Shown piece after piece: positions 4,479 through 55,426 of a DNA stretch of 64,000 nucleotides. The DNA is from Maridesulfovibrio sp. (GTDB lineage Bacteria > Desulfobacterota > Desulfovibrionia > Desulfovibrionales > Desulfovibrionaceae): assembly GCA_963677295.1 (NCBI GenBank), contig OY781931.1; one strand, 5' to 3'. Both the position numbers and the translations under genes were made by a program. The notes under the pieces are model-generated. The model had not been told where the DNA came from, did not search any database, and saw nothing but the letters and a program-made list of their open reading frames with translations. Every line of letters begins with the position of its first letter. The stretch's first letter is position 1.

Positions 4479-4503
4479 TTCAATACTCCTTGTGGGGATG
4501 TGG

Positions 4504-5163
4504 TTACCAATCCTTTGAGTGGCGGACTCCGCCGAACTCTGATCCCATGTAAGCTCTGGTGAACACACCGAACAACATGTGACTGAGTCTGGAGAAAGGA
4601 ATGCTGATCAGCATAATTTCTCCGCAAAGGATATGCAGTATAAGCATTGCCTTGGGGCTTCCGATCTGGTGGTATGCCAGAATACCGAAAAGGAAAGTTA
4701 AAGCTGGAATAGTCAAAGCTACCCAGTCCTTACCGGTAGTCAGGAAACGTACATCACGCTGCAAAAAGCGGCGCAGTCCAAAATAAACGCAGCAAGCTAC
4801 GAGCACAATGGCCATGATGTCGGCAACAGTATCCGGGAGAGTCGGCCATGTAATACCGAAGAACTGATCCCAGAGGACCACGTGTCCCAAAAGGAACAAT
4901 GGAACAATGACAAGACAGATGTGAAAAACAAAAGTTACCAGAGCAGTATAAGGATTGCTCTGCCAACCGAGGGTTCCTACAGGATTGAGCCAGTGCAGAA
5001 TAGAACGCATTCCGAACTTGAAACTCATATAATGCAAGGACGAACCGTCCTTCTTTTTAGCAAGCTGGTACATTGAAACCATCTTGTATATGGAACCTAA
5101 AACAAACACGCCCCAAGCGATCCACGCCAGAGGGCCTACTACGAATGCATAAAAAGAGTTCAT
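4504..5163 (-). CDS. tmcC: membrane cytochrome b (DsrM/HmcE/NarI-like, TmcC-like)
   Basis: 219 aa, polytopic and hydrophobic with conserved His in the helices. GGAGG RBS. Positioned between the tmcD-like and tmcB-like genes. Confidence 0.7.
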   Translation of the reverse strand: MNSFYAFVVGPLAWIAWGVFVLGSIYKMVSMYQLAKKKDGSSLHYMSFKFGMRSILHWLNPVGTLGWQSNPYTALVTFVFHICLVIVPLFLLGHVVLWDQFFGITWPTLPDTVADIMAIVLVACCVYFGLRRFLQRDVRFLTTGKDWVALTIPALTFLFGILAYHQIGSPKAMLILHILCGEIMLISIPFSRLSHMLFGVFTRAYMGSEFGGVRHSKDW

Positions 5164-5181
5164 GCGTATTGCCTCCGGCTG

Positions 5182-6435: not shown

Positions 6436-6653
6436 CTTCTGCCTCCTCATTCCGAAAATCTGGTGTGTCCGCCAACACTTCCAAATCACGCTCGGTTTTT
6501 CGGGTGCCCCGCACCCTGTTTTCTAACCAAATCTAGTCACATCTCTTGGCTTAAACTAACTCACCACATAAGCTCAAAGACCTTTCTGAACTTATAACTG
6601 GTGGTTAAATCGCATATTTTATAGATCAGGACAATAGTAACTATGAGGATTGT

Positions 6654-10609: not shown

Positions 10610-11602
10610 ATGAAGATGGAGAAAAAAGACCAGATGGCAGAAGAAAGTTTCTGCTCAATATCAAGTGATATTTTCAAATTTCTTCCTAAATCAGGACTTC
10701 CTTTTTGCTTATACAGGATGAACCCGCAAACAGGAAATTTTTCTGCTGCGACAACTCCTGGAAAAACAATTGTCAGCGCAGATAAAAAAAGAATATTTAA
10801 AGAATGCGGCAAAGATCTTATTTTCATAAAAAGCTGCGATATTGCTGATTGCCGTCCTTATTTTTGCGCCAATTTAGAAACAGTCATTTCCGACATGGCT
10901 CACTCTATCCCTGATGAAGACATGGCATTGATTATTGTTGAAGCACTCAAAGATGCTTCCAATAAAATTTTCAAAGATTCTCTCAAAAAAAACTTTCACT
11001 ATTTCCACTCAACACTGCTCGCTGCCGGAGAGCTTGTACATACCAATCCTAATATCATCTGGCACATGATCCCGCATTTAGATAAACAACACTCACTTAC
11101 AAACAAATCAATTTCAAACGGAATAATAGGCGCAGGAATTTGTCTGCACGGCAGAGAAGGTAAACCGGACCTTGAGTCTTTCATAGAATCCCTTGTAGCC
11201 CTGTTTCTTTGTGATGTAGGAATGAGCTGCCTGCCTGACTTTGTACTGGGCAAGGAGTTTTCTTTAAGCATTGACGAACAAAAACGCATACGCAATCATC
11301 CTGTCAGTTCCGTTGAAATTCTCAGCATGACAAAGTCTCTCACTAAAACGTCTCTCAGAGCTATCCTTGAACATCATGAAAGAATGGACGGATCAGGCTA
11401 CCCGCGCGGGGTTACAAGCGAAAAAATCTCATGGCTCGGAAAACTGTGTGGCGCTGTAGATTCTTTTGTGGCAATGACAATGATCAGGCCGGGGAAAAAG
11501 TGCATGACAACTGTCGACGCTTTGAAAGCACTATACAAAGAGTCATATCTATATGACCCCAATATTATTTATGCCCTCGAAAAAGTTACCTACAGAGAAT
11601 AA
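10610..11602 (+). CDS. HD-GYP-related domain protein with a degenerate HD dyad and an unassigned N-terminal domain
   Basis: 330 aa. HHERMDGSGYPRG is present, but the position of HD(I/V)GK reads CDVGM. Confidence 0.65.
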   Translation: MKMEKKDQMAEESFCSISSDIFKFLPKSGLPFCLYRMNPQTGNFSAATTPGKTIVSADKKRIFKECGKDLIFIKSCDIADCRPYFCANLETVISDMAHSIPDEDMALIIVEALKDASNKIFKDSLKKNFHYFHSTLLAAGELVHTNPNIIWHMIPHLDKQHSLTNKSISNGIIGAGICLHGREGKPDLESFIESLVALFLCDVGMSCLPDFVLGKEFSLSIDEQKRIRNHPVSSVEILSMTKSLTKTSLRAILEHHERMDGSGYPRGVTSEKISWLGKLCGAVDSFVAMTMIRPGKKCMTTVDALKALYKESYLYDPNIIYALEKVTYRE

Positions 11603-12206
11603 AATAAGCGCAGCTATTTTAGCCGGCGGAGAAGGAAGCCGCATGGGGCACAAGGACAAATCGTGCCTTGAGATTTCCGGTGAAAAAATAATCAACAGAA
11701 TCATCCGTCAATTATCAGGACTTTTCAGCGAAATTTTTGTCATTACCCGAACCCCTGAAAATCATCCGAATTTAAATGTCAGACTTGCCGGAGACATTTA
11801 CCAGCAACGCAGTTCTCTTACCGGGGTGCACGCTGCATTAAGCCACGCTGAAACGGAACATGTTTTCATTACTGCCTGCGACTCACCTTTCTTGAATAAA
11901 AATCTCGTAACAAAACTCATCTCATTGCTTGATCCATCTGATGACGTATTGATCCCTATTCGCAAAAACAAACGATACGAACCGCTTTGCGCTGTATATT
12001 CAAAACGCTGCCTGCCATTTATTGAAAGAAATCTTGATAACGGAATTCTGCAGATCATCAGATTCTTCCCTGAAGTAAAAGTTCATGCTGTAGAAGTCGA
12101 AATTCTCCGGCAACACGATCAGGATCTCGAATCATTTATCAATGTAAACACGCCGGAAGAACTCAGCAAGGCATGTGAGAGAGCGGTTAAATGCGACATG
12201 ACCTAG
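11553..12206 (+). CDS. mobA: molybdenum cofactor guanylyltransferase
   Basis: AAILAGGEGSRMGHKDK nucleotide-binding motif, about 200 aa, followed by moeA. The start is uncertain (ATG 11553 or 11571); either overlaps the end of the preceding gene. Confidence 0.75.
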   Translation: MTPILFMPSKKLPTENKISAAILAGGEGSRMGHKDKSCLEISGEKIINRIIRQLSGLFSEIFVITRTPENHPNLNVRLAGDIYQQRSSLTGVHAALSHAETEHVFITACDSPFLNKNLVTKLISLLDPSDDVLIPIRKNKRYEPLCAVYSKRCLPFIERNLDNGILQIIRFFPEVKVHAVEVEILRQHDQDLESFINVNTPEELSKACERAVKCDMT

Positions 12207-14969: not shown

Positions 14970-15674
14970 TTAATCTTTTTTGAAAAGCCTCAAAAGCAGC
15001 TCATCCAAATTATCGCCGTTATCTATTGCGAACTCAATTTCTTCTTCAAGTTCAGCTGCGCCGGTTTTAACGTCTGAAACAGTACAGTCCATATTTAATG
15101 CAACCTCTTCAGGCGGAATGCCATATCTGAAACAAAGATAGTACAAAGCACGTCTGGCAAGAGTTGCATGGTCAGTCTCCTGTTCCATCATCTCTCTGAA
15201 AGTTACTGCAAAAGCTTCTAAAACAGCGTCTAAAATAGAATCAAATGATTGCTCTTCAAGCTTAATCTCAGATAATGATTTCTTCTCAGTCAGGCCGGAA
15301 AATTCAATAGCACTTATTCCGTACCGATTATGAACAATATCTCTCATTCGATTGATACAGTTCAAGATATCTTCCACAGCGTAATATGCTGTTACATCAG
15401 TAATGAATTCAGCCTCTTCAAGTTCACCATTCTCATTATTCTGAAGAGCTATAGTAACTCCCACTTCAGTGGAAAGAACTTCCTGAGCCGCATCTTTTAT
15501 AGTTCCTAAAAGATGCTCTTGCACCCAATTCATTACAAATTCATTAGGCGCAGTAATTTGGACTACACCATCTTCATATCTGGCAGAAAGGGGATCTACC
15601 CAAACCTTCACCAGAACAGGATTAATGCGGACCTTTAATTTTTTCTTAATCGAGTGCCACAAATCGGAATTCAT
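14970..15674 (-). CDS. DnaA paralogue lacking the AAA+ domain (DnaA domain I plus a domain IV-like C-terminus)
   Basis: 234 aa. Residues 1-75 align by eye with DnaA domain I of the adjacent dnaA (WHSIKKKLKVRINPVLVKVWVDPL...APNEFVMNWVQEHLL against WNKILKFLEKGLNPGLFKVWIKPL...APNEFVAAWVRDRLL). The C-terminus (ATLARRALYYLCFRYGIPPEEVALNMDCTVSDVKTGAAELEEEI) resembles DnaA domain IV. There is no Walker A or B motif. Confidence 0.6.
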   Translation of the reverse strand: MNSDLWHSIKKKLKVRINPVLVKVWVDPLSARYEDGVVQITAPNEFVMNWVQEHLLGTIKDAAQEVLSTEVGVTIALQNNENGELEEAEFITDVTAYYAVEDILNCINRMRDIVHNRYGISAIEFSGLTEKKSLSEIKLEEQSFDSILDAVLEAFAVTFREMMEQETDHATLARRALYYLCFRYGIPPEEVALNMDCTVSDVKTGAAELEEEIEFAIDNGDNLDELLLRLFKKD

Positions 15675-15786
15675 TTCCTACCCCTGAAAGTTTCGTTTCA
15701 GTTTAAAACAAGGGGGCTGGTCTTACGACAAATCAACGCCGGATGCAATGAATATCCTTAAGACAAAAAACAACAGGCAAGTCTGA

Positions 15787-17136
15787 CTATGGAGTCAAGC
15801 GATCAACGGTATCCTGCAACTGCCTGCCAAGAGGAGTTTGCAAAGAAATTTCCCGTTCAACATTAGTAATCCCTTTAATTACGGTTGAGTGTCTGCGGCC
15901 GAGTCTTACTCCAATATCTTTCAAAGAGAGTTCAGTGTATTTGCGAGCGAGAAAAAATGCTGTATTTCTGGCTAAAACAATCTGACGTTTACGGCTTTTC
16001 GAGCGAAGCTGATCAGCTGAAAGGTCATATGAACGACAGATGTGCTCAACAATTGAATCATAACTTGGATTTTTATTTGTAACAGAATAATTTTCAAGAA
16101 CCTGCCAAGCTAATTCCTGTGTCAAATTTCTATTGAGCAACCTTGCTTTGAGAACTAGATTCTGCAGACAACTTTCAAGCTGTCTCACATCGGTTGTAAT
16201 ACGGTCTGCGAGCAGCTCCGAGATAGAATCAGGCACCTGAGTGCCAAGACGGATAGCCTTGCTCTGCACAATGCGTTTTCTGGTCTCAAAGTCAGGAGTA
16301 GCAATAACAGCTAAAAGTCCTGAACAAAATCTGGATACCAACTGCGGGTCAACTTTTTCAAGTTCGCGAGGTAGAAAAGAACTTGTCATAACTACTTTTG
16401 AGCCGCGTAACTGCAAACATTTCAAAGTTTCAAGAATCTCATCCTGCATCTTGTGCTTGCCCTGAAAAAAATGAACATCTTCAAGAAGAAGACAGTCAAC
16501 ATTCTCTCTGAACTCGGATTTGAATCTTGAGATTTCGCCGGCCTTAAGAGCCATAACCATTCTATTGGCAAATTCTTCAGCTGTAAGACAGGCAATGGAA
16601 ACGTGCTGCTTATTACTGGTAGCACACAGCCCCTGACCGATCGAATGCAGTAAATGAGTTTTTCCAAGTCCGGGAGTTGAGCTGAGGAACAGCTGATCTC
16701 CGGGCAGGGAATTATCACAAAGACTTCTCGACGCAGCACATGCCAGCTGGTTAGAATCTCCAACGACAAAGTCATCAAACGAAAAACGCCAGCGTGGAAC
16801 TCTAGCAGTTACCGACGGGCGCATCATGGGAAGTCCCATGCTTGTTTGCACCTGTTGCGGACTTTTAGGGCGAACTAAACCAGCAGGTTTATCAGCAACT
16901 TTTTTAACACCAACTTCAACCTTTGGACGAGCGCCAAGAACCTGAGTTCCGGCCTCGGTAATACTGTCTAAAAGACGGTCTCTAACCCACGCAGCAACAA
17001 ACTCATTAGGAGCATATAGCTTAATGGAGTTACTGCTAACTTCAGCCTTCAAAGGTTTGATCCAAACTTTGAATAGACCGGGGTTAAGCCCTTTCTCAAG
17101 AAATTTTAAAATTTTGTTCCAGCTGTCTGTCATCAT
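15787..17136 (-). CDS. dnaA: chromosomal replication initiator protein DnaA
   Basis: 449 aa. Domain I, AAA+ Walker A (GLGKTHLL), Walker B (LLLEDVHFF), and a C-terminal DNA-binding signature (IVLARNTAFFLARKYTELSLKDIGVRLGRRHSTVIKG). Confidence 0.9.
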   Translation of the reverse strand: MMTDSWNKILKFLEKGLNPGLFKVWIKPLKAEVSSNSIKLYAPNEFVAAWVRDRLLDSITEAGTQVLGARPKVEVGVKKVADKPAGLVRPKSPQQVQTSMGLPMMRPSVTARVPRWRFSFDDFVVGDSNQLACAASRSLCDNSLPGDQLFLSSTPGLGKTHLLHSIGQGLCATSNKQHVSIACLTAEEFANRMVMALKAGEISRFKSEFRENVDCLLLEDVHFFQGKHKMQDEILETLKCLQLRGSKVVMTSSFLPRELEKVDPQLVSRFCSGLLAVIATPDFETRKRIVQSKAIRLGTQVPDSISELLADRITTDVRQLESCLQNLVLKARLLNRNLTQELAWQVLENYSVTNKNPSYDSIVEHICRSYDLSADQLRSKSRKRQIVLARNTAFFLARKYTELSLKDIGVRLGRRHSTVIKGITNVEREISLQTPLGRQLQDTVDRLTP

Positions 17137-37358: not shown

Positions 37359-39509
37359 ATGACCACTGATAATATATCCCGCATTGCTTCCGAACTGAAT
37401 CTACCTGTTAAAAATGTACAAGCTGCAATTTCCCTTCTTGAAGAAGGCGCAACTATTCCTTTTATTTCCCGCTACCGTAAAGAAGCTACGGGCAGTATGG
37501 ATGAAGTCGCAGTGGAAGCTGTCAGCGACCTTTTAGGTAAACTTAATGAGCTTGATAAGAGGCGTGAAACCGTCCTTAATTCAATTGAGGAACAGGGAAA
37601 ACTTACAGACGCACTGCGCAGTAAAATCAATGAAGCTCAAAATATGCGGCAGCTCGAAGATTTATATCTGCCCTACAAACCTAAACGTAAGACTAAAGGA
37701 CAAGCCGCAATTGAAAAAGGACTTGAACCCCTTGCTGTAAAAATTTTCGCCCAGAAATGTGATCCGGAGAAAGAAGCTGAAAGCTATATATCTGCAGATA
37801 AAGGGGTTGAAACTATAGAAGACGCATTAGCCGGAGCGCGTGATATCATAGCAGAAAAAATATCTGAAAATCAGGCTCTGCGTCAGGCAGTGCGCTCACT
37901 TTTTGAAAGCAAAGCTGTACTTGAATCACACGCGACGAAAACAGCCCTGTCCCCTGAATTCGAAGATAAAGCGTCCAAATTTAGGGACTGGTTCAACTGG
38001 CGTGAACCTGCGCGAAAAGCTGCTGGTCATAGGATTCTTGCAATGCTTCGCGGTGAAAGAGATAAATTTCTGAAAGTATCCTTCCGTCCGCCAGAAGAAG
38101 AAGGACTTGATACCTTAAGCCGCAATATTGTTAAGTCCACTTCTGCGGCATCTAAACAGGTAGAAAAAGCATCCGCAGACAGCTATAAGCGCCTTCTTGC
38201 CCCGCAAATGGAAACAGAGCTTCGCTCTAATCTTCTTGAAAAAGCTGAAACAGAAGCCATCAAAGTTTTTGCATCTAATCTTAGAGAAATATTAATCGCT
38301 CCACCGCTCGGCAGTAAAAATATTCTTGCTCTAGACCCTGGATTCAGAACAGGTGCAAAACTTGTCTGTCTGGACGCACAGGGCGGATTAAAGCACAACG
38401 ATACCATCTATCCGGTTACTTCTGACGGCAAGAAAAAAGAAGCGGCAGAAAAAATTTTAGATCTTGTTAATAAATACTCCATTGAGGCAATTGCCATCGG
38501 TAACGGAACCGCAGGACGCGAGACAGAACAGTTCATCAAAGGGCTGGATCTGCCAGAGTCTTTACCTATCATAATGGTCAACGAATCCGGTGCATCCGTA
38601 TATTCGGCTTCACCGATCGCCAGAGAAGAATTCCCGGATTATGACATCACCGTTCGCGGCGCAGTCTCAATCGGGCGCAGACTTATGGACCCGCTGGCTG
38701 AGCTTGTGAAAATAGATCCAAAATCAATCGGAGTCGGACAATATCAGCATGATGTTGATCAGAAAAAACTGGCTGAAAGCCTTACCAGAGTTGTCGAGTC
38801 CTGCGTAAACATGGTGGGTGTTGAGCTTAACACAGCCAGCGCAAAACTTTTGGAATCAGTTTCCGGACTCAGCTCAACAATTGCTGCGAATATTATTAAG
38901 TGGAGAAATGAAAACGGACCGTTTGCAACACGCAAAGCTCTGATGAAAGTCCCGAGACTCGGACCTAAAGCATATGAACAGTGCGCCGGATTCCTGCGCA
39001 TCCGAAACGCTGAAAATCCGCTTGATGAAACAGCCGTTCATCCGGAACGATATGAGACTGTTGCCCTCATGGCTAAGGATCTTAATGCCAGTGTTTCTGA
39101 TCTTATTAAATCAGCGGAACTCAGAAAACAAATCGAACTGAAAAAATATATTTCAGATGATCTTGGGTTGCCGACCCTTGAAGATATTATGAAAGAACTT
39201 GAAAAACCGGGCCGTGACCCTCGTAAAAAGTTCGAACTTGTTCAGTTTGATGATGACGTAAAAGAGGTTGAAGACCTTAAAGAAGGCATGATGCTGAACG
39301 GAATTATCACTAATGTAACCAACTTTGGGGCATTTGTTGATATTGGAGTGCATCAGGACGGACTGGTACATATCAGCAGATTAACAGATAACTTCGTACG
39401 CAACCCGTCTGATGTCGTCTATCCTGGGCAGGCAGTACTTGTTAAGGTTATGGAAGTGGACCTTGCACGCAAAAGAATTGCCCTTTCCATGAAAGAATCA
39501 GACAGGTAA
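37359..39509 (+). CDS. tex: Tex-like transcription accessory protein with C-terminal S1 domain
   Basis: 716 aa. N-terminus IPFISRYRKE, YqgF-like and HhH regions, and a C-terminal S1 domain (GIITNVTNFGAFVDIGVHQDGLVHIS). Confidence 0.9.
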   Translation: MTTDNISRIASELNLPVKNVQAAISLLEEGATIPFISRYRKEATGSMDEVAVEAVSDLLGKLNELDKRRETVLNSIEEQGKLTDALRSKINEAQNMRQLEDLYLPYKPKRKTKGQAAIEKGLEPLAVKIFAQKCDPEKEAESYISADKGVETIEDALAGARDIIAEKISENQALRQAVRSLFESKAVLESHATKTALSPEFEDKASKFRDWFNWREPARKAAGHRILAMLRGERDKFLKVSFRPPEEEGLDTLSRNIVKSTSAASKQVEKASADSYKRLLAPQMETELRSNLLEKAETEAIKVFASNLREILIAPPLGSKNILALDPGFRTGAKLVCLDAQGGLKHNDTIYPVTSDGKKKEAAEKILDLVNKYSIEAIAIGNGTAGRETEQFIKGLDLPESLPIIMVNESGASVYSASPIAREEFPDYDITVRGAVSIGRRLMDPLAELVKIDPKSIGVGQYQHDVDQKKLAESLTRVVESCVNMVGVELNTASAKLLESVSGLSSTIAANIIKWRNENGPFATRKALMKVPRLGPKAYEQCAGFLRIRNAENPLDETAVHPERYETVALMAKDLNASVSDLIKSAELRKQIELKKYISDDLGLPTLEDIMKELEKPGRDPRKKFELVQFDDDVKEVEDLKEGMMLNGIITNVTNFGAFVDIGVHQDGLVHISRLTDNFVRNPSDVVYPGQAVLVKVMEVDLARKRIALSMKESDR

Positions 39510-39618
39510 ACAAAAATAAATCATAGCTAGACCTGACACATCACGGATGCTATACGATGAATAATAAAAAATTATCACTCGTCGTTAATAACCTGCCAGT
39601 GCCATCAGGAGGCTATGT

Positions 39619-40014
39619 ATGAAATTTCTCATCGCTGACGACAATGAACTCCACCGTGAACTCATAACCGATACAGTTAAAGACCACGGTATGTATCATA
39701 TCGTCAGTGATGGAAATGAAGCTGTTAAAGCTTTTACTGCTTCCTTAGATAAAAAAGATTCTTTCAGCGCAATTTTTATAAAATCAAAAATCGGCTCACA
39801 GGATGGACCGCATGCTTTGCGGAAAATAAGAGAGATAGAACAGAAAAACGGTCTTGAATTAAATAAAGAAATACCGATTATCATGACCGTTATGGACGAT
39901 GAAGAGCAGATCTCTGAAACATACCTGCGCGGAAACTCAACAACCTTTATTCTCAAGCCTCTTACTAAAGATAAAATTGTGGAAGAGCTGACTCTTTTCG
40001 GGCTTATCCCATAA
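39619..40014 (+). CDS. single-domain receiver (CheY-like) protein lacking the phospho-acceptor Asp (pseudo-receiver)
   Basis: 131 aa. LIADDN acidic pair and LKP lysine are present. The position aligned by eye to CheY D57 (FVISDWNMPNMDG) reads AIFIKSKIGSQDG, i.e. Lys. Confidence 0.65.
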   Translation: MKFLIADDNELHRELITDTVKDHGMYHIVSDGNEAVKAFTASLDKKDSFSAIFIKSKIGSQDGPHALRKIREIEQKNGLELNKEIPIIMTVMDDEEQISETYLRGNSTTFILKPLTKDKIVEELTLFGLIP

Positions 40015-40031
40015 CAAAATAAGTCAGCCCT

Positions 40032-40379
40032 CTACATTCCGGGCAGCATCAAATGGCTTTTCTCAATCTGCCTTTTTTTTCTTCTCTTGATGGTTCTTGG
40101 ATGAACCCCTAATCTATAAGGTCGCAACACACATTCTTTTTCAGGACACGCCCTGATAGCCTGTCTGTCGCCGACAGTACACGCAAGGCAGTATCTTCGA
40201 ATTGCACGTATACAAACACGCTCAACCTCATCGGACTTAGGTCCTCTAAGCTGAAAAAGAGAGCAATTCTCGTCCAGACACTCTCTGACAAGCTGAGAAC
40301 TTCCACCCATGCACCACAAGCAGTGTGCCCGAATGCTCTGCTGAGGATTTCTTTTACGCTCGCTCAAATAACGCTCCAT
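40032..40379 (-). CDS. small basic protein with two tandem Cys4 modules
   Basis: Start taken at ATG 40379 (MERYL...). It has two copies of CxxC-x10-C-x4-C (IRAHCLWCMGGSSQLVRECLDENC and IRRYCLACTVGDRQAIRACPEKEC) and a basic tail. Confidence 0.45.
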   Translation of the reverse strand: MERYLSERKRNPQQSIRAHCLWCMGGSSQLVRECLDENCSLFQLRGPKSDEVERVCIRAIRRYCLACTVGDRQAIRACPEKECVLRPYRLGVHPRTIKRRKKRQIEKSHLMLPGM

Positions 40380-40521
40380 AAATCTTGCATTTACTAATGT
40401 GAAACAAATCAAAAACGGCCGCGAAGCTCATCCTTACGTAAATCATCTGAAAAGATAAAGAGGTTGAGCAAGGATTCAAAAAGTATTTTTTAAGTAACGC
40501 ATCCGTCATTCTGTTTCCATA

Positions 40522-40552
40522 TAAAAAGCGTGCTTCGCCAACCGAAACACGC
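40522..40552 (-). terminator. rho-independent terminator after the 3D-domain gene
   Basis: GCGTGCTTCG-ccaac-CGAAACACGC (10-bp stem, one wobble), followed on the minus strand by TTTTT. Confidence 0.55.
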
Positions 40553-40587
40553 CTTATCTTTTACACTGAAATAAAAATTTAATATCG

Positions 40588-40980
40588 TCAGTTTTCCGCT
40601 TCTTCCCATGCAATAACAACTTCACGTTCACCCCAGTCATCTGCGGCAGTGGTATTAAGTCCCATGTAGATATCAATCCTGTCAGTCCAGCGTTCATTCA
40701 TTTTATCTTTAACAAGATACTTACCTTCGAGCCCTTCAATTTTAACAGCTGTATCATGGGTAAGGCCCTTTTTAAGCAAATCACGCGATACGGCAATAAC
40801 CTTCATTCCGGGTTTTAACTTATCACCCCATGCGCCGACGAAAGGTGTCGCAGAAGTTTGATCTTTATATGAATTGTATGCTGTAGCAGTCACTTTCATG
40901 GTCATTTTCTTTTCATCAGAGCAACTGGAAACAAGCATAAGAATAGCTAACAGCAACAACAAAAATTTAAACTTGGGCAT
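40588..40980 (-). CDS. 3D-domain lipoprotein (MltA/RlpA-like fold)
   Basis: 130 aa. Lipoprotein signal (LAILMLVSSC) and 3D-domain-like VTATAYNS...VIAVSRDLL. Confidence 0.6.
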   Translation of the reverse strand: MPKFKFLLLLLAILMLVSSCSDEKKMTMKVTATAYNSYKDQTSATPFVGAWGDKLKPGMKVIAVSRDLLKKGLTHDTAVKIEGLEGKYLVKDKMNERWTDRIDIYMGLNTTAADDWGEREVVIAWEEAEN

Positions 40981-41011
40981 ACGGTCCTCCTTTAAATTAA
41001 AATTTACAAAC

Positions 41012-41716
41012 CTACAGTTTGCAATTCATATAGCTATTGTCAGCACTAAAAACAGATGCACCCTTTTGAACAGTTCCGTTACAGCATGAGTATTCAACAT
41101 CAGTGACTTTCTTTAAAAAATTCAGATCATGCGAAACGACGAGCATTGCGACATCAAGTGAACATAAAATATCAGCAAGTCTGTCCCGCATTGAAGGATC
41201 TAAATCATTAGTAGGTTCATCAAGAACCAGCGCTTCAGGCTGCATTGCCAGCACTGTCGCAAGCGATACCAATTTTTTTTCACCGCCGGACAAACGGTAA
41301 GTAACTCTTTCTTCATACCCCGAAAGACCGAGCAGGCAAAGTACATATTTTGAAATTTCGCGGGCCTCATCAGGAGTTTTTCCCAGATTCAAAGGTCCGA
41401 AGGCAACATCTTCAATAACGGTAGGACAAAAAAGCTGATCATCCGCCTGCTGAAAAAGAAGCCCTACGCCTTTACGAAGTTCTCTGAAATCTTTCTCGGT
41501 TTTCATCTCGGTGTTTTTAAAAAGAACCTGCCCTGAAGTTGGTGACAAAAGTCCCATAATGATATGGAGCATGGTGGTCTTACCGCTGCCGTTATGTCCG
41601 GTAAACGCAATTTTTTCGCCGCAGTTCAAATCAAAATTAACGGACTTCAAAACCTCGTTACCACCGGGATAAACAAAATTTATATCACGCAAGGAAAAAA
41701 TCGGATAACTCACCAA
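41012..41716 (-). CDS. cbiO: ECF/cobalt-type ABC transporter ATPase (CbiO/EcfA-like)
   Basis: Walker A GHNGSGKTT, signature LSGGEKK, Walker B LVLDEPT. Overlaps the stop of the cbiQ-like gene by 7 nt. Confidence 0.75.
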   Translation of the reverse strand: MVSYPIFSLRDINFVYPGGNEVLKSVNFDLNCGEKIAFTGHNGSGKTTMLHIIMGLLSPTSGQVLFKNTEMKTEKDFRELRKGVGLLFQQADDQLFCPTVIEDVAFGPLNLGKTPDEAREISKYVLCLLGLSGYEERVTYRLSGGEKKLVSLATVLAMQPEALVLDEPTNDLDPSMRDRLADILCSLDVAMLVVSHDLNFLKKVTDVEYSCCNGTVQKGASVFSADNSYMNCKL

Positions 41717-44956: not shown

Positions 44957-45766
44957 CTAAAATAATTTGGGTGCAATTTTTTCCGTAAAGTATTTCAAAC
45001 TAGATTCGAAATCATCACGGGTATGCGGTTCAAGTGTAATTGAAGGAAGAGGATCAAGTTCTTTAACTCGATGGATAATATGCTCCCAGTTTATGCACCC
45101 TTCACCTAAAGCAAGATGATCGTCTTTGCGTCCCATATTATCATGCAGATGCATATGGCGTATGTACGGAGCAAGTGAATCAAACCAGAAATCAAAATCA
45201 TTCTTTTCCGATCCCTTTGAAAAAGAATGCCAATGCCCCACATCAAAACAGATGCCTATATTTTCACGGTCCAAATCCTCTACAAGCTGCATAAGCGGCC
45301 CGGGATCATACTCATAAGTATTTTCAAGGCACAGCACCGGATGATCAGGCCATGAATCACTTAAACTGCGAATTCCATCCAGACAATTTTCATAAGCTTC
45401 ATCAAAAAGCGGCGGTTCAAGCCATGAAGTAAAGGATGGATGCATTACCATTCTTTCAGGAGAAAATATTTTTGCAAGCTCAAATGCACCGCATAAGGTG
45501 TCTATGGAAGCTTGACGAATGGCAGAATTAAGGCTGGATGGTTTTAAGTCCAAAAAAGGAAGATGTGTTGTACATTTAAGTCCTGCCGCAGCAAGACGGT
45601 CTCTGATCGTAAGCAACCAGTCTTTACTGATACATTCACTTCCTAAACAGTCCAGCCCCAGTTCGGGCTGAATTGAATTTTCAATAAACAGGTCCAGATA
45701 CTCAGGAGTGTTGTAAATATATCTAAGAGGAAGATTAACATAGCAATTTTCAGTTACGGCTTTCAT
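44957..45766 (-). CDS. xylose-isomerase-like TIM-barrel protein (sugar phosphate isomerase/epimerase, AP endonuclease 2 family)
   Basis: Start moved to ATG 45766 (GAGGAG RBS); the ORF-track start is GTG 45778. Family-typical ...ICFDVGHWH... and ...YIRHMHLHDN... metal-binding motifs. Confidence 0.6.
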   Translation of the reverse strand: MKAVTENCYVNLPLRYIYNTPEYLDLFIENSIQPELGLDCLGSECISKDWLLTIRDRLAAAGLKCTTHLPFLDLKPSSLNSAIRQASIDTLCGAFELAKIFSPERMVMHPSFTSWLEPPLFDEAYENCLDGIRSLSDSWPDHPVLCLENTYEYDPGPLMQLVEDLDRENIGICFDVGHWHSFSKGSEKNDFDFWFDSLAPYIRHMHLHDNMGRKDDHLALGEGCINWEHIIHRVKELDPLPSITLEPHTRDDFESSLKYFTEKIAPKLF

Positions 45767-45789
45767 AATACTCCTCACATGTTCATCAA

Positions 45790-47532
45790 TTAATCAAGCG
45801 AAGTTTGCATCTGCGCTGAACCTTTGAATGTCATACCGCCTACAAGTTCGAATGTTGTTGAATGACGAAGTGTAATTTTGACCTCTTTACCAGGATTCAC
45901 ATCAAAAGATTCGCCCCATGCAACAGGTAGACGATTAATAAACGGCTGGATTTTATCAAGTTTACCATTACTCCACGCTTCAGAGAGCACATATCTGTCA
46001 GCCGGTAGCTCAAGAGTAGTATCACGCTTCCATTTGATAAGAGTTTCAGATCCATGCGCGCGTTTCACTCTAAGAGCTTTTACAACACGCGGGAAAACTG
46101 AAAGATAAAATTCTGCCCCCCGCTTACCCGGAGTTTCTCTGACTATTCTATATCGGGCCCCGCCGTCATCGCTTTCAAGCTTATACTTATCCATAAAATT
46201 GGACGGATCGATGATAATTTCATACCCGATATCCTGCCCGCTATTAACCATAACAGAGGCTACAAAACCTTTTAAGTTAAGAATTTCATCTCTATTGCTA
46301 CCAAGAACCCCTTCAATAATGAACTGATCGCCTTCCAGAACTTTTAACACTCCTGAAGTCGGTACAAAATGAGGATTACCGTTCAGCCAGCATAAAAAGA
46401 CCGGACCGTGAGGTTCTGGGGAACTTTCATGCTGTCCACTCCAGCGGACCTTTGCAGTTGTAGACGTATCGCCATCAAGACTTATTTGAAGGGCTGGAAA
46501 TGATGATAAAGCCATGCGCGGAGCTGTCAAAAGATTAAGATTAGGGCGGTCACTTGCGTATACAGCAACAGCCGGTTCAAGAATAGAGTCAGCGACAACA
46601 TCGCCTTGACCTGAAGTAGAAACAGGGCCGCCACGCACAAGATTCACGCTCTTTCCAGAAAGCGGACTGCCGTTAATCAAAATTTTGAGACCGGAAGCTT
46701 TTCCTTCCTTAGGAAATGAAAATTCTGGTATTTCAACCTTTAATCCGAATTCTTCAAGTAAAAGAACCGTTGCTCGCAACTGCTGGCGCACTTTCCATTC
46801 AAGATCCATAATATCTTTACTGACTTCCACCGCCATGGCAGGTATTCCACGCTCAACAAGCGCGTAACAAGTCAAAGATTTGAGCATCTCAGGATAATGA
46901 GTGGCTTTATCGAAAGTGTCTGTATTAAAAAGAGTAAACCAATAAGATTTATTGGGAATTTTTGAATTAAGGGTATCAATTGCACGCTGGCACAATTCAG
47001 CAAGAGGAATGTTTTTGTATACAGTAGCATCTATGATCATTGACTGACCATAGCGATTTGGATTTCTTAAGTTATTTATGTATTTTGGATTATAAAACCC
47101 GCTACCTTCATGCAAATGAATAAATCCGTCAGCATCATCAAGTAAAAACCGAATAGCCTTGGCTAAACGATCTTCATAAAAACTATTGTATTCCTTATCA
47201 AATCTTCTGTTAAGATCGACATTTATCTGGCGGGACCTCCGAAGAATCGAAGGCTCGTTCGCACGCGGGATAATAATCAGGTTCCCTTTGTGAAGCTTAC
47301 ACTTAGTCAGCAGTTGCCCTGTAAAAAATCCGGAAAGTTCATCCCCCTGAACTCCGCCCTGAACCATAATAGTCGGCCCGGGTTCATCACCGAAAACCCA
47401 GGTCACGCGCAAAGGATACTGTGTTCCTTCAAAAAAAGTATAGCTCCGTACAGTCTGAGCATGTACAGATGATACGGCAAAAAACAGTGCACAAAAGCTA
47501 ATTAAAAATACGCGACAGAGGGTATACTTCAC
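45790..47532 (-). CDS. secreted Csd4/Pgp1-like (M14/M99-type) metallocarboxypeptidase with a large C-terminal extension
   Basis: 580 aa with a signal peptide. The N-terminal ~270 aa carry QGDE (Q62-x-x-E65) in place of the M14 HxxE motif, DLNRRF, and HLHEGSGFY about 77-79 residues downstream. This is the Gln/Glu/His zinc-ligand pattern I recall for Csd4. Its start overlaps the upstream gene by 35 nt. Confidence 0.55.
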   Translation of the reverse strand: MKYTLCRVFLISFCALFFAVSSVHAQTVRSYTFFEGTQYPLRVTWVFGDEPGPTIMVQGGVQGDELSGFFTGQLLTKCKLHKGNLIIIPRANEPSILRRSRQINVDLNRRFDKEYNSFYEDRLAKAIRFLLDDADGFIHLHEGSGFYNPKYINNLRNPNRYGQSMIIDATVYKNIPLAELCQRAIDTLNSKIPNKSYWFTLFNTDTFDKATHYPEMLKSLTCYALVERGIPAMAVEVSKDIMDLEWKVRQQLRATVLLLEEFGLKVEIPEFSFPKEGKASGLKILINGSPLSGKSVNLVRGGPVSTSGQGDVVADSILEPAVAVYASDRPNLNLLTAPRMALSSFPALQISLDGDTSTTAKVRWSGQHESSPEPHGPVFLCWLNGNPHFVPTSGVLKVLEGDQFIIEGVLGSNRDEILNLKGFVASVMVNSGQDIGYEIIIDPSNFMDKYKLESDDGGARYRIVRETPGKRGAEFYLSVFPRVVKALRVKRAHGSETLIKWKRDTTLELPADRYVLSEAWSNGKLDKIQPFINRLPVAWGESFDVNPGKEVKITLRHSTTFELVGGMTFKGSAQMQTSLD

Positions 47533-52061: not shown

Positions 52062-52568
52062 ATGAAAAATAGAGCGTTTGATAAAGCTGTAGAAGATGTT
52101 TCCGAAGTATTCATGTTTGATCACTGGATGCGATTTTACTTCATCTTTGAAGAAGACAAAAAACTGATTGTAAGAGTTCCTAAGGAAGTTGTCAGTCAGG
52201 TTGAAAAAGAGTTTCCAACACTGCACGGACTGATAGAACTCACTAATAATGAAGAAATTGATCAGCAAAAATCAACTCAGAACGTCTGCTCTTTCATCGG
52301 AGCCCGCTTTGACGGTACTAAATACTCTGACAAAATTATCCCGAAAGTTTTCGATTCTAAAGAATTTAAGATTGAAACCTATCTATTCAATCTCTGGATT
52401 AAGGGGCATGAATCACATCTGGAATCTGAAGTTATGACTTTTGCAGAATGGAAAGAACTTTATGCAGGATGGAAAGATCTGGATGAAGTTAAAAATTATA
52501 TTTCCAGACTCAGTAAAGCTGGAAGCGGTGCTGTAATTCAACCACCGACCTGCACAACTGTGCAGTAA
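52062..52568 (+). CDS. hypothetical protein
   Basis: 168-aa ORF with AAGGAG RBS. Possible TTGACT-17-CATATA promoter at 51975-52003, with a terminator downstream. No recognisable motif. Confidence 0.45.
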   Translation: MKNRAFDKAVEDVSEVFMFDHWMRFYFIFEEDKKLIVRVPKEVVSQVEKEFPTLHGLIELTNNEEIDQQKSTQNVCSFIGARFDGTKYSDKIIPKVFDSKEFKIETYLFNLWIKGHESHLESEVMTFAEWKELYAGWKDLDEVKNYISRLSKAGSGAVIQPPTCTTVQ

Positions 52569-52593: not shown

Positions 52594-52627
52594 AAGGGAG
52601 TCTCAATCAGGGACTCCTTTTTTTAGG
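52594..52627 (+). terminator. rho-independent terminator
   Basis: GGAGTC-tcaatcagg-GACTCC followed by TTTTTTT. Confidence 0.6.
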
Positions 52628-52628
52628 T

Positions 52629-52739
52629 TCATCTCCCAATTCCGGGAAAGGCGGCTCTGATTTTAAGGAAAAAGTATTCGTCATCCATGAAGCCGTAGCC
52701 CATGCGTTTGATCACCTTGATTGAGGAAGTCTCTAACAT
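52629..52739 (-). pseudogene. C-terminal remnant of a transposase (ISL3-family-like)
   Basis: Own translation of the minus strand: ...MLETSSIKVIKRMGYGFMDDEYFFLKIRAAFPGIGR*. The IKVIKR-x-(A/G)YGF-x-D-x-EYFFLKI pattern is how I remember ISL3 (IS204/IS1001-type) transposase C-termini. The frame is closed by a stop about 47 codons upstream, so only a fragment remains. Confidence 0.4.
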
Positions 52740-52889
52740 GTCCAGCTTGAGCCCTCTCTGAAAAGCAATCGCCGTCAGCTAAGGCAGAGAGACTTCACAG
52801 CCCGGCTTCATTCCGGCTTGTGAGACATGTTGCGTCCTTCAACAAGCGCAAGTCAACCTCTCAGCAGGATTCCGACTGACGCACAGCCA

Positions 52890-53843
52890 TCAGTATCGGC
52901 GAGCCCAAACTTCCTTGGCACTCATCTCAACACCTTCCAGAATGATCGTGCTCTCCCCACATGTGATAAAGGTCTTGCCGCCTGCGGCTGCCACACTAAT
53001 ATCATCGATACTATTGGCTTCGACAAATCTAATCTTATCCGTATCGGGATTGAAATCGGTAATGGTATCCGTGCCGCTGTTATTGTCAAACACGAAGACA
53101 TCGCTTCCCTCTCCACCTGTAAGTGTGTCGTTACCGGCACCGCCAATCAAGATGTCGTTGCCTTCATCGCCAAACAGGATATCGTCTCCCTCATCTCCAC
53201 TAATATCATCGTTCCCCGTGCCGCCGTGCATTTCGTCGTCGCCCGAACCGCCTCCCATGGTGTCGTCACCGGCATCACCATACAGGGTATCTTCCCCCAC
53301 TTGTCCTTCCATCATGTCGTTGTCATCGCCGCCATGCATTTCGTCATCGCCAGAACCACCCCACATGGTGTCGTTGCCCGAACCGCCGTCCATGGAGTCA
53401 TCGCCGATATCGTCCTCGCCCAGCCCATAGCCGCCGTCCATGGAGTCGTTACCGGATCCGCCAAGCAAAGTGTCATTGCCAAAGCCACCCCACAGGGTGT
53501 CGTTGCCGTCGCCTCCATCAAGCTCGTCATTGAAAACCGCACCAGACCTTGCGCCAAAGAAATCGGCGAACTGAGCCCACAGGGAAGTGTCCCCCCCAAG
53601 CCTCTGATCTTCGCTGGAATTTTTGCCGCCGACCACGGTTTCCAATTCCGCATCACTGAGTTCTCCCTCAGGTGGCTCCAGCATTTCCCGCAACTTCTCC
53701 GGGGTGATGTCGAGACCGTGTTCATCAAGAATGGCAGATACAACCTCTCTCATTTCGGCAGGTGACTGCGCAGCCGCCAGTCTTGCGCGGACAGCCGGGT
53801 CCTCATACAGAGCCCGAAAGGTTTCCTGTGTGCTTTTCGTCAT
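52890..53843 (-). CDS. Nif11-type double-glycine leader fused to an RTX (GGxGxD) calcium-binding repeat protein, copy 1
   Basis: 317 aa. Residues 1-73 (...RLAAAQSPAEMREVVSAILDEHGLDITPEKLREML...ELSDAELETVVGG) match the Nif11/NHLP-style leader ending in GG. About 14 nonapeptide repeats follow (GGDGNDTLW, GGFGNDTLL, GGSGNDSMD ...), then a GSDVFVF...DTITDF tail. AAGGAG RBS. Confidence 0.75.
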   Translation of the reverse strand: MTKSTQETFRALYEDPAVRARLAAAQSPAEMREVVSAILDEHGLDITPEKLREMLEPPEGELSDAELETVVGGKNSSEDQRLGGDTSLWAQFADFFGARSGAVFNDELDGGDGNDTLWGGFGNDTLLGGSGNDSMDGGYGLGEDDIGDDSMDGGSGNDTMWGGSGDDEMHGGDDNDMMEGQVGEDTLYGDAGDDTMGGGSGDDEMHGGTGNDDISGDEGDDILFGDEGNDILIGGAGNDTLTGGEGSDVFVFDNNSGTDTITDFNPDTDKIRFVEANSIDDISVAAAGGKTFITCGESTIILEGVEMSAKEVWARRY

Positions 53844-53884
53844 GGCGTATTCTCCTTTGCGTTATATTTTATATAGCAAATGAT

Positions 53885-53912
53885 GCGTGACCACCAAAAA
53901 AGTTTCACGTGA
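53885..53912 (-). promoter_or_regulatory. conserved GTCACG direct repeat / TCACGTGA palindrome in the putative promoter of the RTX gene (same element at 55309-55336)
   Basis: Sense strand: GAGTCACGTGAAAC-N8-GGTGGTCACGCATCATTTGCTATATAAAATA. GTCACG occurs twice, 22 bp apart. Possible -35 TTGGTG, 17-bp spacer, -10 TATATA. Confidence 0.3.
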
Positions 53913-54066
53913 CTCAAATTAAGGGATCACTAATTAGAAATACCGCACGAACCTACATGCGCCGTCGCCGAAGGGAGATTAACTCGATCCAGACCTCGGG
54001 GTGCTTGCGTTCGTCACTTATTTCAGGGCGCTGTGTACGAACGCTAACGCCGCTTTTAATGAATGA

Positions 54067-54108
54067 AACAAAACGCCCGTCCAGGAATTCCCGGACGGGC
54101 GTTTTTCT
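54067..54108. terminator. strong bidirectional terminator in the 166-bp unique spacer between the two cassettes
   Basis: aaaACGCCCGTCC-aggaattccc-GGACGGGCGTttttt, 10-bp GC-rich stem, with T-runs on both strands. Confidence 0.8.
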
Positions 54109-54145
54109 TGGCCATGGTATTTGCAAACAAAACTCGTTTCGAAGC

Positions 54146-55403
54146 TGAGGAAGTCTCTAACATGTCCAGCTTGAGCCCTCTCTGAAAAGCAATCGCCGTC
54201 AGCTAAGGCAGAGAGACTTCACAGCCCGGCTTCATTCCGGCTTGTGAGACATGTTGCGTCCTTCAACAAGCGCAAGTCAACCTCTCAGCAGGATTCCGAC
54301 TGACGCACAGCCATCAGTATCGGTGAGCCCAAACTTCCTTGGCACTCATCTCAACACCTTCCAGAATGACCGTGCTCTCCCCACATGTGATAAAGGTCTT
54401 GCCGCCTCCGGCTACCACACTAATATCATCGATACTATTGGCGTCGCTAAATTGAATCCTATCCGTACCGAAATTGAAATCGGTAATGGTATCCGTGCCG
54501 CTGTTATTGCCAAACACGAAGACATCGCTTCCCTCTCCACCTGTAAGTGTGTCGTTACCGGCACCGCCAATCAAGGTGTCGTTGCCTTCATCGCCAAACA
54601 GGATATCGTCTCCCTCATCTCCACTAATATCATCGTTCCCCGTGCCGCCGTGCATTTCGTCGTCGTCCGAACCGCCCCACATGGTGTCGTGACCGGCATC
54701 ACCATACAGGGTATCTTCCCCCACTTCTCCTTCCATTCTGTCGTTGTCATCGCCGCCATGCATTTCGTCATCGCCAGAACCACCCCACATGGTGTCGTTG
54801 CCCGAACCGCCTTCCATGGAGTCATCGCCGATATCGTCCTCGCCCAGCCCATTGCCGCCTTCCATGGAGTCGTTACCGGATCCGCCAAGCAAAGTGTCAT
54901 TGCCAAAGCCACCAAACATGGTGTCGTTGCCGGCGCCTCCATCAAGCTCGTCATTGAAAACCGCACCAGACCTTGCGCCAAAGCAATAGGCGAACTGAGC
55001 CCACAGGGAAGTGTCCCCCCCAAGCCTCTGATCTTCGCTGGAATTTTTGCCGCCGACCACGGTTTCCAATTCCGCATCACTGAGTTCTCCCTCAGGTGGC
55101 TCCAGCATTTCCCGCAACTTCTCCGGGGTGATGTCGAGACCGTGTTCATCAAGAATGGCAGATACAACCTCTCTCATTTCGGCAGGTGACTGCGCAGCCG
55201 CCAGTCTTGCGCGGACAGCCGGGTCCTCATACAGAGCCCGAAAGGTTTCCTGTGTGCTTTTCGTCATGGCGTATTCTCCTTTGCGGTATATTTTATATAG
55301 CTAATGATGCGTGACCACCAGAATAGTTTCACGTGACTCAAATTAAGGGATCACTAATTAGAAATACCGCACGAACCTACATGCGCCGTCGCCGAAGGGA
55401 GAT
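54146..55403. repeat. copy 2 of the 1,258-bp duplicated cassette
   Basis: See copy 1. Confidence 0.9.
54314..55267 (-). CDS. Nif11-type double-glycine leader fused to an RTX calcium-binding repeat protein, copy 2
   Basis: 317 aa. Residues 1-93 are identical to copy 1, and 25 of the remaining 224 residues differ. Confidence 0.75.
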   Translation of the reverse strand: MTKSTQETFRALYEDPAVRARLAAAQSPAEMREVVSAILDEHGLDITPEKLREMLEPPEGELSDAELETVVGGKNSSEDQRLGGDTSLWAQFAYCFGARSGAVFNDELDGGAGNDTMFGGFGNDTLLGGSGNDSMEGGNGLGEDDIGDDSMEGGSGNDTMWGGSGDDEMHGGDDNDRMEGEVGEDTLYGDAGHDTMWGGSDDDEMHGGTGNDDISGDEGDDILFGDEGNDTLIGGAGNDTLTGGEGSDVFVFGNNSGTDTITDFNFGTDRIQFSDANSIDDISVVAGGGKTFITCGESTVILEGVEMSAKEVWAHRY

Positions 55404-55426
55404 GAACCTTTTTTTATGCCTTAATA

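Follow-up and report, generated by a model that had tools for sequence, protein, structure and literature searches.

Replacement-only divergence of tandem RTX genes with Nif11-like double-glycine leaders, carried by an ISL3-derived element in Maridesulfovibrio

The stretch of Maridesulfovibrio sp. DNA analysed here (64,000 nt of contig OY781931.1, assembly GCA_963677295.1; hereafter denoted the window) contains two 317-codon minus-strand open reading frames (ORFs), W1 at 52890–53843 and W2 at 54314–55267, each of which encodes a Nif11-like double-glycine leader followed by an RTX β-roll. The two genes are probably recently duplicated cargo of a peptidase-containing ABC transporter (PCAT) of the NHLM/Nif11 type, with positive diversifying selection acting on the exported part of the cargo. 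Their divergence consists of amino acid replacements only, is confined to the part of the gene downstream of the leader, and is found again in alleles from two further genomes. Both genes lie inside an ISL3-derived insertion, a finding that is new relative to an earlier model-made reading of the window's DNA (hereafter the original prediction), which had described the divergence of the two copies.

Divergence of W1 and W2

A repeat search of the window placed both ORFs in a direct repeat whose period is 1,424 nt; a position-by-position comparison gives its extent as 52722–53983 versus 54146–55407. In an ungapped alignment the two coding sequences differ at 31 nucleotides in 25 codons, and none of the 25 differing codons is silent. 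The W1/W2 replacements are D94Y, F95C, D112A, L117M, W118F, D136E and Y139N (codons 94–139); D152E, M177R, Q181E, D193H, G197W, G201D, I231T and D253G (codons 152–253); and P266F, D267G, K270R, R272Q, V274S, E275D, A285V, A287G, I300V and R315H (codons 266–315). Two changes are present in six of these 25 codons, and 25 of the 31 differences fall at first and second codon positions. Codons 1–93 (53565–53843) are the same in W1 and W2, the 168-nt 3′ flank (52722–52889) has zero differences between the two units, and the 140-nt 5′ flank has four, at 53862, 53878, 53897 and 53900.

The offset, the number of differences and their exclusively residue-changing nature had been reported in the original prediction from an alignment made by hand, and a machine comparison of the ungapped codons gives the same result. 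The identity of codons 1–93 and of the 3′ flank, also claimed there, is confirmed; the four 5′-flank differences were absent from it. The residue changes that it listed are right, but their numbers drift by 1–4 after codon 95, such that its D111A is D112A and its I229T is I231T.

The replacement-only pattern is rarely obtained by chance. When 31 random substitutions were placed on the W1/W2 codons (stop codons disallowed; transition/transversion weights of 0.41–4), zero silent codons resulted in 0.015–0.25% of 20,000 trials, the expectation being 5.5–7.9 silent codons, varying with the transition/transversion bias. An own-coded pairwise Goldman–Yang model (GY94/F3x4) gives a ratio of nonsynonymous to synonymous divergence (dN/dS; omega) of 8.8 for W1 versus W2, with rejection of omega = 1 (likelihood-ratio test (LRT) 9.6, p = 0.002). 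Nei–Gojobori counting (NG86) of the mature region, in which path averaging over the six two-hit codons yields 2 silent and 29 replacement steps, gives dS 0.013 and dN 0.052. With silent sites pooled with the duplicated non-coding flanks as the neutral yardstick, replacement divergence in the mature region (31/574 sites) exceeds neutral divergence (4/519) approximately 7-fold (Fisher p = 5e-6), and replacements are found at 0/166 sites of the leader versus 31/574 of the cargo (p = 3e-4). The 19 single-hit codons alone, which are all replacements, have a probability of about 0.004–0.009 (0.75^19 to 0.78^19). Taken as a whole, these analyses support positive, diversifying selection on the exported part, with omega significantly greater than 1; the strong diversifying selection on the exported domain that the original prediction had proposed, together with the dN/dS estimate by which it suggested examining it, is thus upheld.

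Alleles in related genomes

Close alleles are present in two further genomes. A metagenome-assembled genome (MAG), ~98% identical to the window in flanking DNA, carries two copies, M_A and M_B, at the syntenic locus (L001), and Pseudodesulfovibrio sp. CP182342.1 carries a single copy, G2, at another chromosomal site (L002); with W1 and W2 these make up a set of five alleles from three genomes. In the MAG, which is an independent metagenome assembly, M_B and M_A reproduce, copy for copy, 19 of the 31 differences between W1 and W2, from which it follows that the duplication and most of the divergence are older than the split of the two genomes. GY94/F3x4 fits to further allele pairs also give omega far above 1 (p = 0.016, 0.011 and 8e-6), including M_A versus M_B (LRT 19.9, p = 8e-6).

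When the five alleles are compared, 41 codons of the mature region vary (at 53 nucleotides), 40 by replacement and 1 silently; in the leader, five codons vary, three silently and two by replacement (Fisher test versus the mature region, p = 0.0025). At codon 95, no two of the alleles encode the same residue (F, C, V, T and L). A scan of the genome contigs with W1 found five distant loci only, and no close allele.

The RTX family evolves fast generally, with the replacement-only pattern restricted to the young W clade. In the single-copy orthologues of a sister clade (L005, L012–L014), silent divergence is ordinary and omega is 0.4–0.67, versus 0.14–0.21 for neighbouring genes among the three closest genomes. 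A constraint on silent sites within the family was considered and is ruled out, since dS in the sister clade is normal and similar to that of neighbouring genes. An unusually low silent divergence between strains was likewise rejected: the window and the related genome differ locally by a background of only 0.4–1.2%, and the non-coding parts of the element differ by about 0.6–1%, so that one silent change per gene is unremarkable.

Alleles also differ in length and in context. In the W1 orthologue of the MAG (L001, 11425–12324), 54 nt are missing, corresponding to exactly two RTX nonapeptides (codons 211–228); RTX repeat number therefore varies between close strains. The gene copy in CP182342.1 (L002, 10001–10954) is 98% identical and lies between glyA and ilvD, at an unrelated site without insertion sequence (IS) ends; what it has in common with the W unit extends only from about −63 to +290. 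The four 5′-flank differences between W1 and W2 form a 39-nt patch (53862–53900; 55286–55324) around a promoter-like site. This patch is unique to W2, agrees with G2 at three of the four sites and looks like a short recombination import.

The encoded protein

RTX calcium-binding repeats were identified in six stretches by a Pfam search (PF00353, E 4.7e-37), and about 14 GGxGxDxUx nonapeptides can be placed in register. The leader comprises 73 residues with a double-glycine end, GELSDAELETVVGG, followed by K74. Its last 13–14 residues, ELSDAELETVVGG, form the predicted recognition and cleavage motif, with a predicted cut ELSDAELETVVGG/K (G73/K74). E61, L62, D64, L67, G72, G73 and K74 are invariant in 25 homologues and V70 is nearly so. 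TIGR03798, the profile for ribosomally synthesised and post-translationally modified peptide (RiPP) precursors with a Nif11-like leader, matches 15 of 25 family members at E ≤ 0.01 (best E 6.5e-7). By mutagenesis, the double-glycine protease LahT (LahT150) has been found to need L-12, L-7, V-4 and the GG of its leader (PMC6363468). The W leader agrees with this, having hydrophobic residues at −4, −7 and −12 and the GG in place.

A further point that is new relative to the original prediction is that conservation of the leader across the family is limited to its last ~14 residues, leader residues 1–59 varying more than the β-roll: mean identity among 22 family members is 30% for residues 1–59, 78% for the leader tail, 56% for the roll and 45% for the cap. 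The conserved-leader/hypervariable-core logic of the original prediction therefore holds on a short time scale, as between W1 and W2, but not across the family. When the leader alone was used as query against 1.84 billion representative proteins, 14 matches were obtained; as nearly all of these carry RTX repeats after GGK, the leader is a subtype dedicated to RTX cargo.

The mature protein (244 residues, 25.1 kDa, pI 4.05) has 58 acidic residues and one or two cysteines. AlphaFold2, run with a 25-sequence alignment, models the leader as helical with low confidence, and the β-roll and a three-stranded C-terminal cap with a predicted local distance difference test score above 90 from about residue 150 (72–88 for residues 101–150). 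In a Foldseek search with this model, the matches were RTX blocks of the adenylate cyclase toxin CyaA, family I.3 lipases and serralysins, with a probability of 1.00 for each of 7rah, 6sus and 5cvw (root-mean-square deviation of 2.0 over 111 columns for 5cvw). The mature W proteins are thus predicted to be parallel RTX β-rolls with a C-terminal cap. A short RiPP core with a modifying enzyme is not what was found, since the core is a 244-residue RTX domain and the insertion holds only the two genes. The Nif11-like double-glycine leader, the 244-residue RTX β-roll and the location of homologues beside NHLM export trios (see below) are nonetheless in line with the original prediction of a RiPP- or bacteriocin-type leader on a protein-sized cargo.

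In the five-allele set, 11 of the 21 variable residues of the roll occupy repeat positions 7 and 9 according to the repeat-register assignment; the others comprise three conservative swaps at position 8, five changes at positions 3/5 and two at 2/4. Positions 7 and 9 flank the buried hydrophobic residue and, in known RTX rolls such as that of alkaline protease, face outward. The density of variation is highest in the C-terminal cap (13 variable codons in 65 residues), and the 36-residue segment before the roll has five variable codons, including codon 95.

Link to a C39 peptidase-containing exporter

At locus L004 of a Pseudodesulfovibrio MAG, four tandem homologues adjoin three genes, the products of which are an ABC protein of 726 aa carrying a Peptidase_C39 domain, another ABC protein of 950 aa and an HlyD-like adaptor. 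This trio exceeds the curated cut-offs of TIGR03796, TIGR03797 and TIGR03794 (NHLM/NHLP bacteriocin export), and Haft et al. have tied the NHLM export trio to Nif11-type precursors (PMC2887384). Exporter and cargo homologues are repeatedly found on the same contigs, and the same exporter locus is present on another contig (L022) of the MAG that carries M_A and M_B. The exporter locus of L022 (5752–9829, 19572–20456) also contains a 406-aa RTX gene with the leader tail ELSDNELHNIAAAG, together with one RHS/YD-shell and one GNAT-like gene; in L004, the four RTX genes are likewise followed by a GNAT-like gene (10889–11782), and a cargo-modifying role is possible.

A PCAT with 82% identity to that of L004, P0142, appears to be encoded elsewhere in the genome from which the window derives: P0142 is recorded on a contig of 4,074,214 bp, and the two W proteins on one of equal length and with identical sources. 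The first 150 residues of P0142 match LahT150 (6mpz; E 3.6e-39), and the motifs of the cysteine (ECG(A)A), histidine (HF(L/V)V) and aspartate (NDP) coincide in the alignment. RTX proteins with Nif11 or double-glycine leaders are not described in the literature searched, the coverage of which was partial, and reviews assign C39 exporters and RTX substrates to different classes (PMC8277102).

For the W proteins we infer the cleavage site, export and calcium-driven folding, which would proceed as follows. The last 13–14 residues of the 73-residue helical leader would serve as the recognition and cleavage motif for LahT-like C39 peptidase domains, and an exporter encoded elsewhere in the genome would cleave after G73 and then move the acidic 25-kDa cargo out of the cell. 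There, the ~14 nonapeptide repeats would bind calcium and fold into a β-roll closed by the C-terminal cap. Since the duplication, positive selection would have introduced replacements in the exported part only, mostly at outward repeat positions, in the cap and in the short segment preceding the roll, with the leader kept unchanged by purifying selection. Our best guess for the selective agent is recognition of the secreted or surface-associated protein by competitors, phages or grazers.

Weighing the evidence and alternative explanations

Several observations tell against a PCAT cargo under diversifying selection. Regarding the leader, the Nif11 match (PF07862, residues 10–49) scores 19.1 bits versus a curated cut-off of 23.8, and that of TIGR03798 21.2 bits versus 32.3, such that both are below threshold. 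No exporter gene was found within the 64-kb window. The W proteins possess a serralysin-like C-terminal cap, and exit via a C-terminal signal, as in classical RTX proteins, may occur. Regarding selection, the Fisher test on NG86 counts is weaker (p = 0.02), two ‘silent’ steps remaining after path averaging; multinucleotide mutation in the six two-hit codons would make codon models overstate omega; and 12 of the nucleotide differences are specific to W1 and known from one assembly only, and may either have arisen in W1 or have been erased from the copy of the related genome by conversion.

We consider it improbable that relaxed constraint after duplication, in combination with chance and with the aid of multinucleotide mutations, produced the pattern in the absence of positive selection. 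Such a process predicts omega of 1 or less, whereas the observed value is 8.8 (p = 0.002), and the pair of the related genome departs from 1 still more clearly (p = 8e-6). The doubly changed codons (6/25), the fast evolution of the family in general (omega 0.4–0.67 versus 0.14–0.2 for neighbouring genes) and a sample small enough for the NG86 Fisher test to reach only p = 0.02 are all compatible with it; the same excess is, however, seen on several branches in three genomes (40 of the 41 mature codons that vary), neither ORF is disrupted, and changes are significantly scarcer in the leader.

Concerted evolution, in which W1 and W2 would be old, neutrally diverged copies whose leader and flanks were recently homogenised by gene conversion around an unconverted core, was offered as an alternative in the original prediction, and the identity of the leader and 3′ flank agrees with it. 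Short recombination patches do occur here, as all four neutral-looking differences lie in the one 39-nt 5′-flank patch; outside it, neutral sites show 0 differences in about 480, where copies no younger than the split from the related genome (divergence about 0.6%) should show roughly three or more (Poisson P about 0.055). An old core should, however, hold a proportional number of silent differences, and the finding of none in about 158 silent sites (dS about 0) largely refutes this; conversion cannot erase silent differences a few nucleotides away from 25 retained replacement sites. Moreover, the whole unit is young: with non-coding divergence of about 1% or less, an unchanged leader and 3′ flank are expected and gene conversion is not needed. 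We therefore regard concerted evolution as having little prospect of being correct.

Intragenic shuffling, by micro-conversions between imperfect RTX nonapeptide repeats, is very unlikely. Possible donors within the same gene exist at a few sites (nt 408 and 456 co-vary, SMD/SME; nt 589/591, TMW, match the repeat at nt 475), but for at least 18 of the 24 difference clusters neither allele has a donor within one mismatch, only three or four clusters having a plausible one, and no donor was found for any cluster in the non-repeat C-terminal cap or the pre-roll segment. In addition, the repeats are only 61–70% alike in DNA, so that transfers would bring silent changes too.

Targeted mutagenesis, for example by a diversity-generating retroelement writing changes into chosen codon positions, would account for the bias itself (replacements only, with 25/31 differences at first and second codon positions), but is scarcely credible: no third (template) copy was found in the window, no reverse-transcriptase match was obtained among 38 larger window ORFs or in the 20-kb syntenic locus, adenine specificity is lacking (A, G, C and T occur at 34, 32, 24 and 21 of the 53 variable positions, respectively), and the variation covers 675 nt including three structural regions. 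An assembly or sequencing artefact, i.e. collapsed or chimeric copies as the original prediction had cautioned, can be set aside, because, error-prone as near-identical tandem repeats are and lacking as the 12 W1-only differences are in independent confirmation, the same two-copy arrangement, junctions and 19 copy-specific differences recur in the independent assembly of L001, W2-type alleles are also present in CP182342.1, and the differences are all in-frame substitutions with zero indels.

The ISL3-derived element

The insertion that carries W1 and W2 is absent from three relatives, L018 (GCA_006210265.1), L019 and L020; at these empty sites, the flanking NlpC/P60 gene and a 168-aa ORF are 62–68 nt apart, versus 2.86 kb in the window. 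The related MAG has the same element junctions. The G+C content of the element is 53%, versus 42.5% for the window. An 8-bp target duplication, as found here (Table 1), is typical of ISL3. The transposase remnant shares 80–89% identity with the C-terminal ends of transposases annotated as ISL3 family members (E 1e-8 to 2e-9) and aligns with positions 218–240 of 240 of Pfam DDE_Tnp_ISL3 (E 0.036). As only the last 30 transposase codons remain, the element is non-autonomous; an autonomous partner IS was not found in the sequences examined. The degenerate internal copy of the left end, and the sharing of only about −63 to +290 with G2, suggest that a native gene with its promoter and terminator was captured between IS ends and then duplicated inside. 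Carriage by this element explains why the genes are found at this site and why the two copies share a recent ancestor.

Table 1. Features of the W1/W2 region (positions in the window)
Feature	Position	Strand	Basis
W1: precursor gene, 317 aa (73-aa Nif11-like double-glycine leader and 244-aa RTX β-roll including C-terminal cap)	52890..53843	-	ORF, Pfam, NCBIfam, AlphaFold2, Foldseek
W2: tandem paralogue of W1, 317 aa, 25 residue differences	54314..55267	-	ORF and codon comparison
Leader-coding part, W1 codons 1–73, ending ELSDAELETVVGG; W2 equivalent 55049–55267	53625..53843	-	Predicted cleavage G73/K74
W1 stretch with all 31 differences, codons 94–315; W2 equivalent 54324–54988	52900..53564	-	Codon comparison
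168-nt 3′ flank; W2 copy 54146–54313; also in CP182342.1	52722..52889	-	Native downstream sequence of gene
5′ flank of W1; W2 equivalent 55268–55407; copies differ at 4 positions	53844..53983	-	Sequence comparison
Promoter-like site in 5′ flanks	53866–53893 (W1), 55290–55317 (W2)	-	Sequence
Shine–Dalgarno AAAGGAG	53852–53858 (W1), 55276–55282 (W2)	-	Sequence
Terminator-like hairpin, 16-bp stem, downstream of W2, in 162-nt inter-copy spacer	54070..54105	-	Sequence
ISL3-derived insertion, 2,783 bp, without transposase, holding both RTX genes and nothing else	52626..55408	.	Empty sites, G+C content
Terminal inverted repeat GGTTCATCTCCC, 12 bp, perfect; partner 55397–55408 (-)	52626..52637	+	2 matches in window, 0.23 expected by chance
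Target-site duplication TTTTTTTA, 8 bp; second copy 55409–55416	52618..52625	+	Single copy at empty sites
ISL3 transposase remnant, last 30 codons (IKVIKRMGYGFMDDEYFFLKIRAAFPGIGR), abutting the 168-nt W1 flank	52632..52721	-	Homology
Degenerate internal copy of left inverted repeat (GGGAGATTAACT on plus strand), 2 mismatches, at upstream edge of W1 unit	53973..53984	-	Sequence

The 168-aa ORF (52062–52568, plus strand) is conserved and convergent to W1, with no Pfam or NCBIfam match; its presence at the empty sites as well shows that it does not belong to the cassette. Two 312-aa plus-strand ORFs lie antisense to the RTX genes (52827–53765 and 54251–55189), and are most likely by-products of the codon periodicity of the repeats, not genes.

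Comparison with known systems

The closest parallel is with the Nif11-type (N11P) RiPP precursors and their PCATs, such as the ProcA prochlorosins and LahA1-9/LahT (PMC2887384, PMC6363468, PMC10783134), which share with the W proteins a long helical Nif11-related leader ending in LSDxELExVxGG. As with N11P precursors, the W paralogues share a leader and differ after the GG, the associated exporter is of the TIGR03796/03797/03794 type, and LahT150 of the LahA/LahT system is the closest match to the peptidase domain of P0142. Unlike the N11P precursors, in which the GG is followed by a 15–40-residue core rich in Cys, Ser and Thr, the W proteins continue with a 244-aa folded RTX β-roll; the W genes have no accompanying modifying enzyme, the leader is below the TIGR03798 and PF07862 cut-offs, and leader residues 1–59 are less conserved than the cargo.

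With classical RTX substrates of type 1 secretion systems (T1SS), i.e. HlyA, CyaA, serralysin/alkaline protease and family I.3 lipases (PMC3034196, PMC8277102), the W proteins have in common the GGxGxDxUx nonapeptides and a predicted calcium β-roll with a C-terminal cap (...SDVFVF...DTITDF...). Those proteins use an uncleaved C-terminal signal and a transporter in which C39 is absent or dead, whereas the sequence of the W proteins points to a cleavable N-terminal double-glycine leader and the exporter linked to the family has an active-looking C39 domain. The W proteins also lack an enzyme or pore-forming domain, with little present beyond the roll.

CtA of PCAT1, class II microcins such as MccV, and MAM of Faecalibacterium are likewise unmodified polypeptides with an N-terminal double-glycine leader, which in those cases is removed by the transporter during export (PMC6959990, PMC10231218, PMC12184118). 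For none of these has omega above 1 between tandem copies been reported in the literature searched. The CtA, MccV-type and MAM cargos are about 60–135 residues long and are not known to be RTX proteins.

The biofilm RTX proteins of Desulfovibrio vulgaris Hildenborough, a member of the same bacterial family as the host of the W genes, are very large and are not known to have a double-glycine leader. They are T1SS substrates that resemble the W proteins in their calcium-binding repeats and in ABC export, which for W is predicted, and matrix formation or adhesion is accordingly one possible role of the latter (PMC5646257).

Mobile insertion cassettes and non-autonomous IS derivatives consist of IS ends around passenger genes, with no transposase. 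The W element is similar to this class in its 12-bp inverted repeats, 8-bp duplication, reduced transposase and passenger genes, and differs in that the passengers are two exporter cargo genes and that it contains a degenerate internal copy of one end.

Other features of the window

The genes for the electron-transfer complex proteins TmcB, TmcC and TmcD (3162–6489; above NCBIfam cut-offs) identify the host as a Desulfovibrionaceae-type sulfate reducer. At 14970–17136, downstream of a dnaA gene (449 aa), lies a 234-aa ORF with only the N-terminal domain of DnaA. A second local divergence hot spot lies at 45750–46250, at the 3′ end of a Peptidase_M99-like gene (45790–47532), where 53 differences from the related MAG occur in 500 nt; elsewhere there are 3–10 per 250 nt. 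A 1.5-kb stretch (39509–41012) contains neither an ORF of at least 150 aa nor an Rfam match at gathering scores, and a scan of the whole 64-kb window with Rfam gave no match.

Implications

The textbook division places small leader-bearing bacteriocins and their C39 transporters on one side, and RTX proteins with C-terminal signals and transporters without an active peptidase on the other; the W family joins both. It consequently offers a natural test of the size and kind of cargo that a PCAT can accept. It is conceivable, albeit rather doubtful at present, that the W proteins represent a new class of type 1 substrate, in which folded RTX β-rolls exit via a Nif11 leader and an active C39 exporter and act as polymorphic extracellular effector or recognition proteins; a single promiscuous exporter with diversifying, IS-borne cargo genes would then be the protein-sized counterpart of the ‘one machine, many products’ arrangement of the prochlorosins. 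A role in biofilms is also possible, as is a bacteriocin-like or recognition function; secreted RTX proteins are required for biofilm formation by D. vulgaris (PMC5646257).

No new principle is established by these findings, which provide a clean, testable example. The decayed ISL3 carriage shows how exporter cargo genes can spread far from their exporter. Divergence by replacements only, found in several alleles and genomes, singles out the exported surface as what an arms race or self/non-self recognition acts on; such interactions are poorly known in sulfate reducers.

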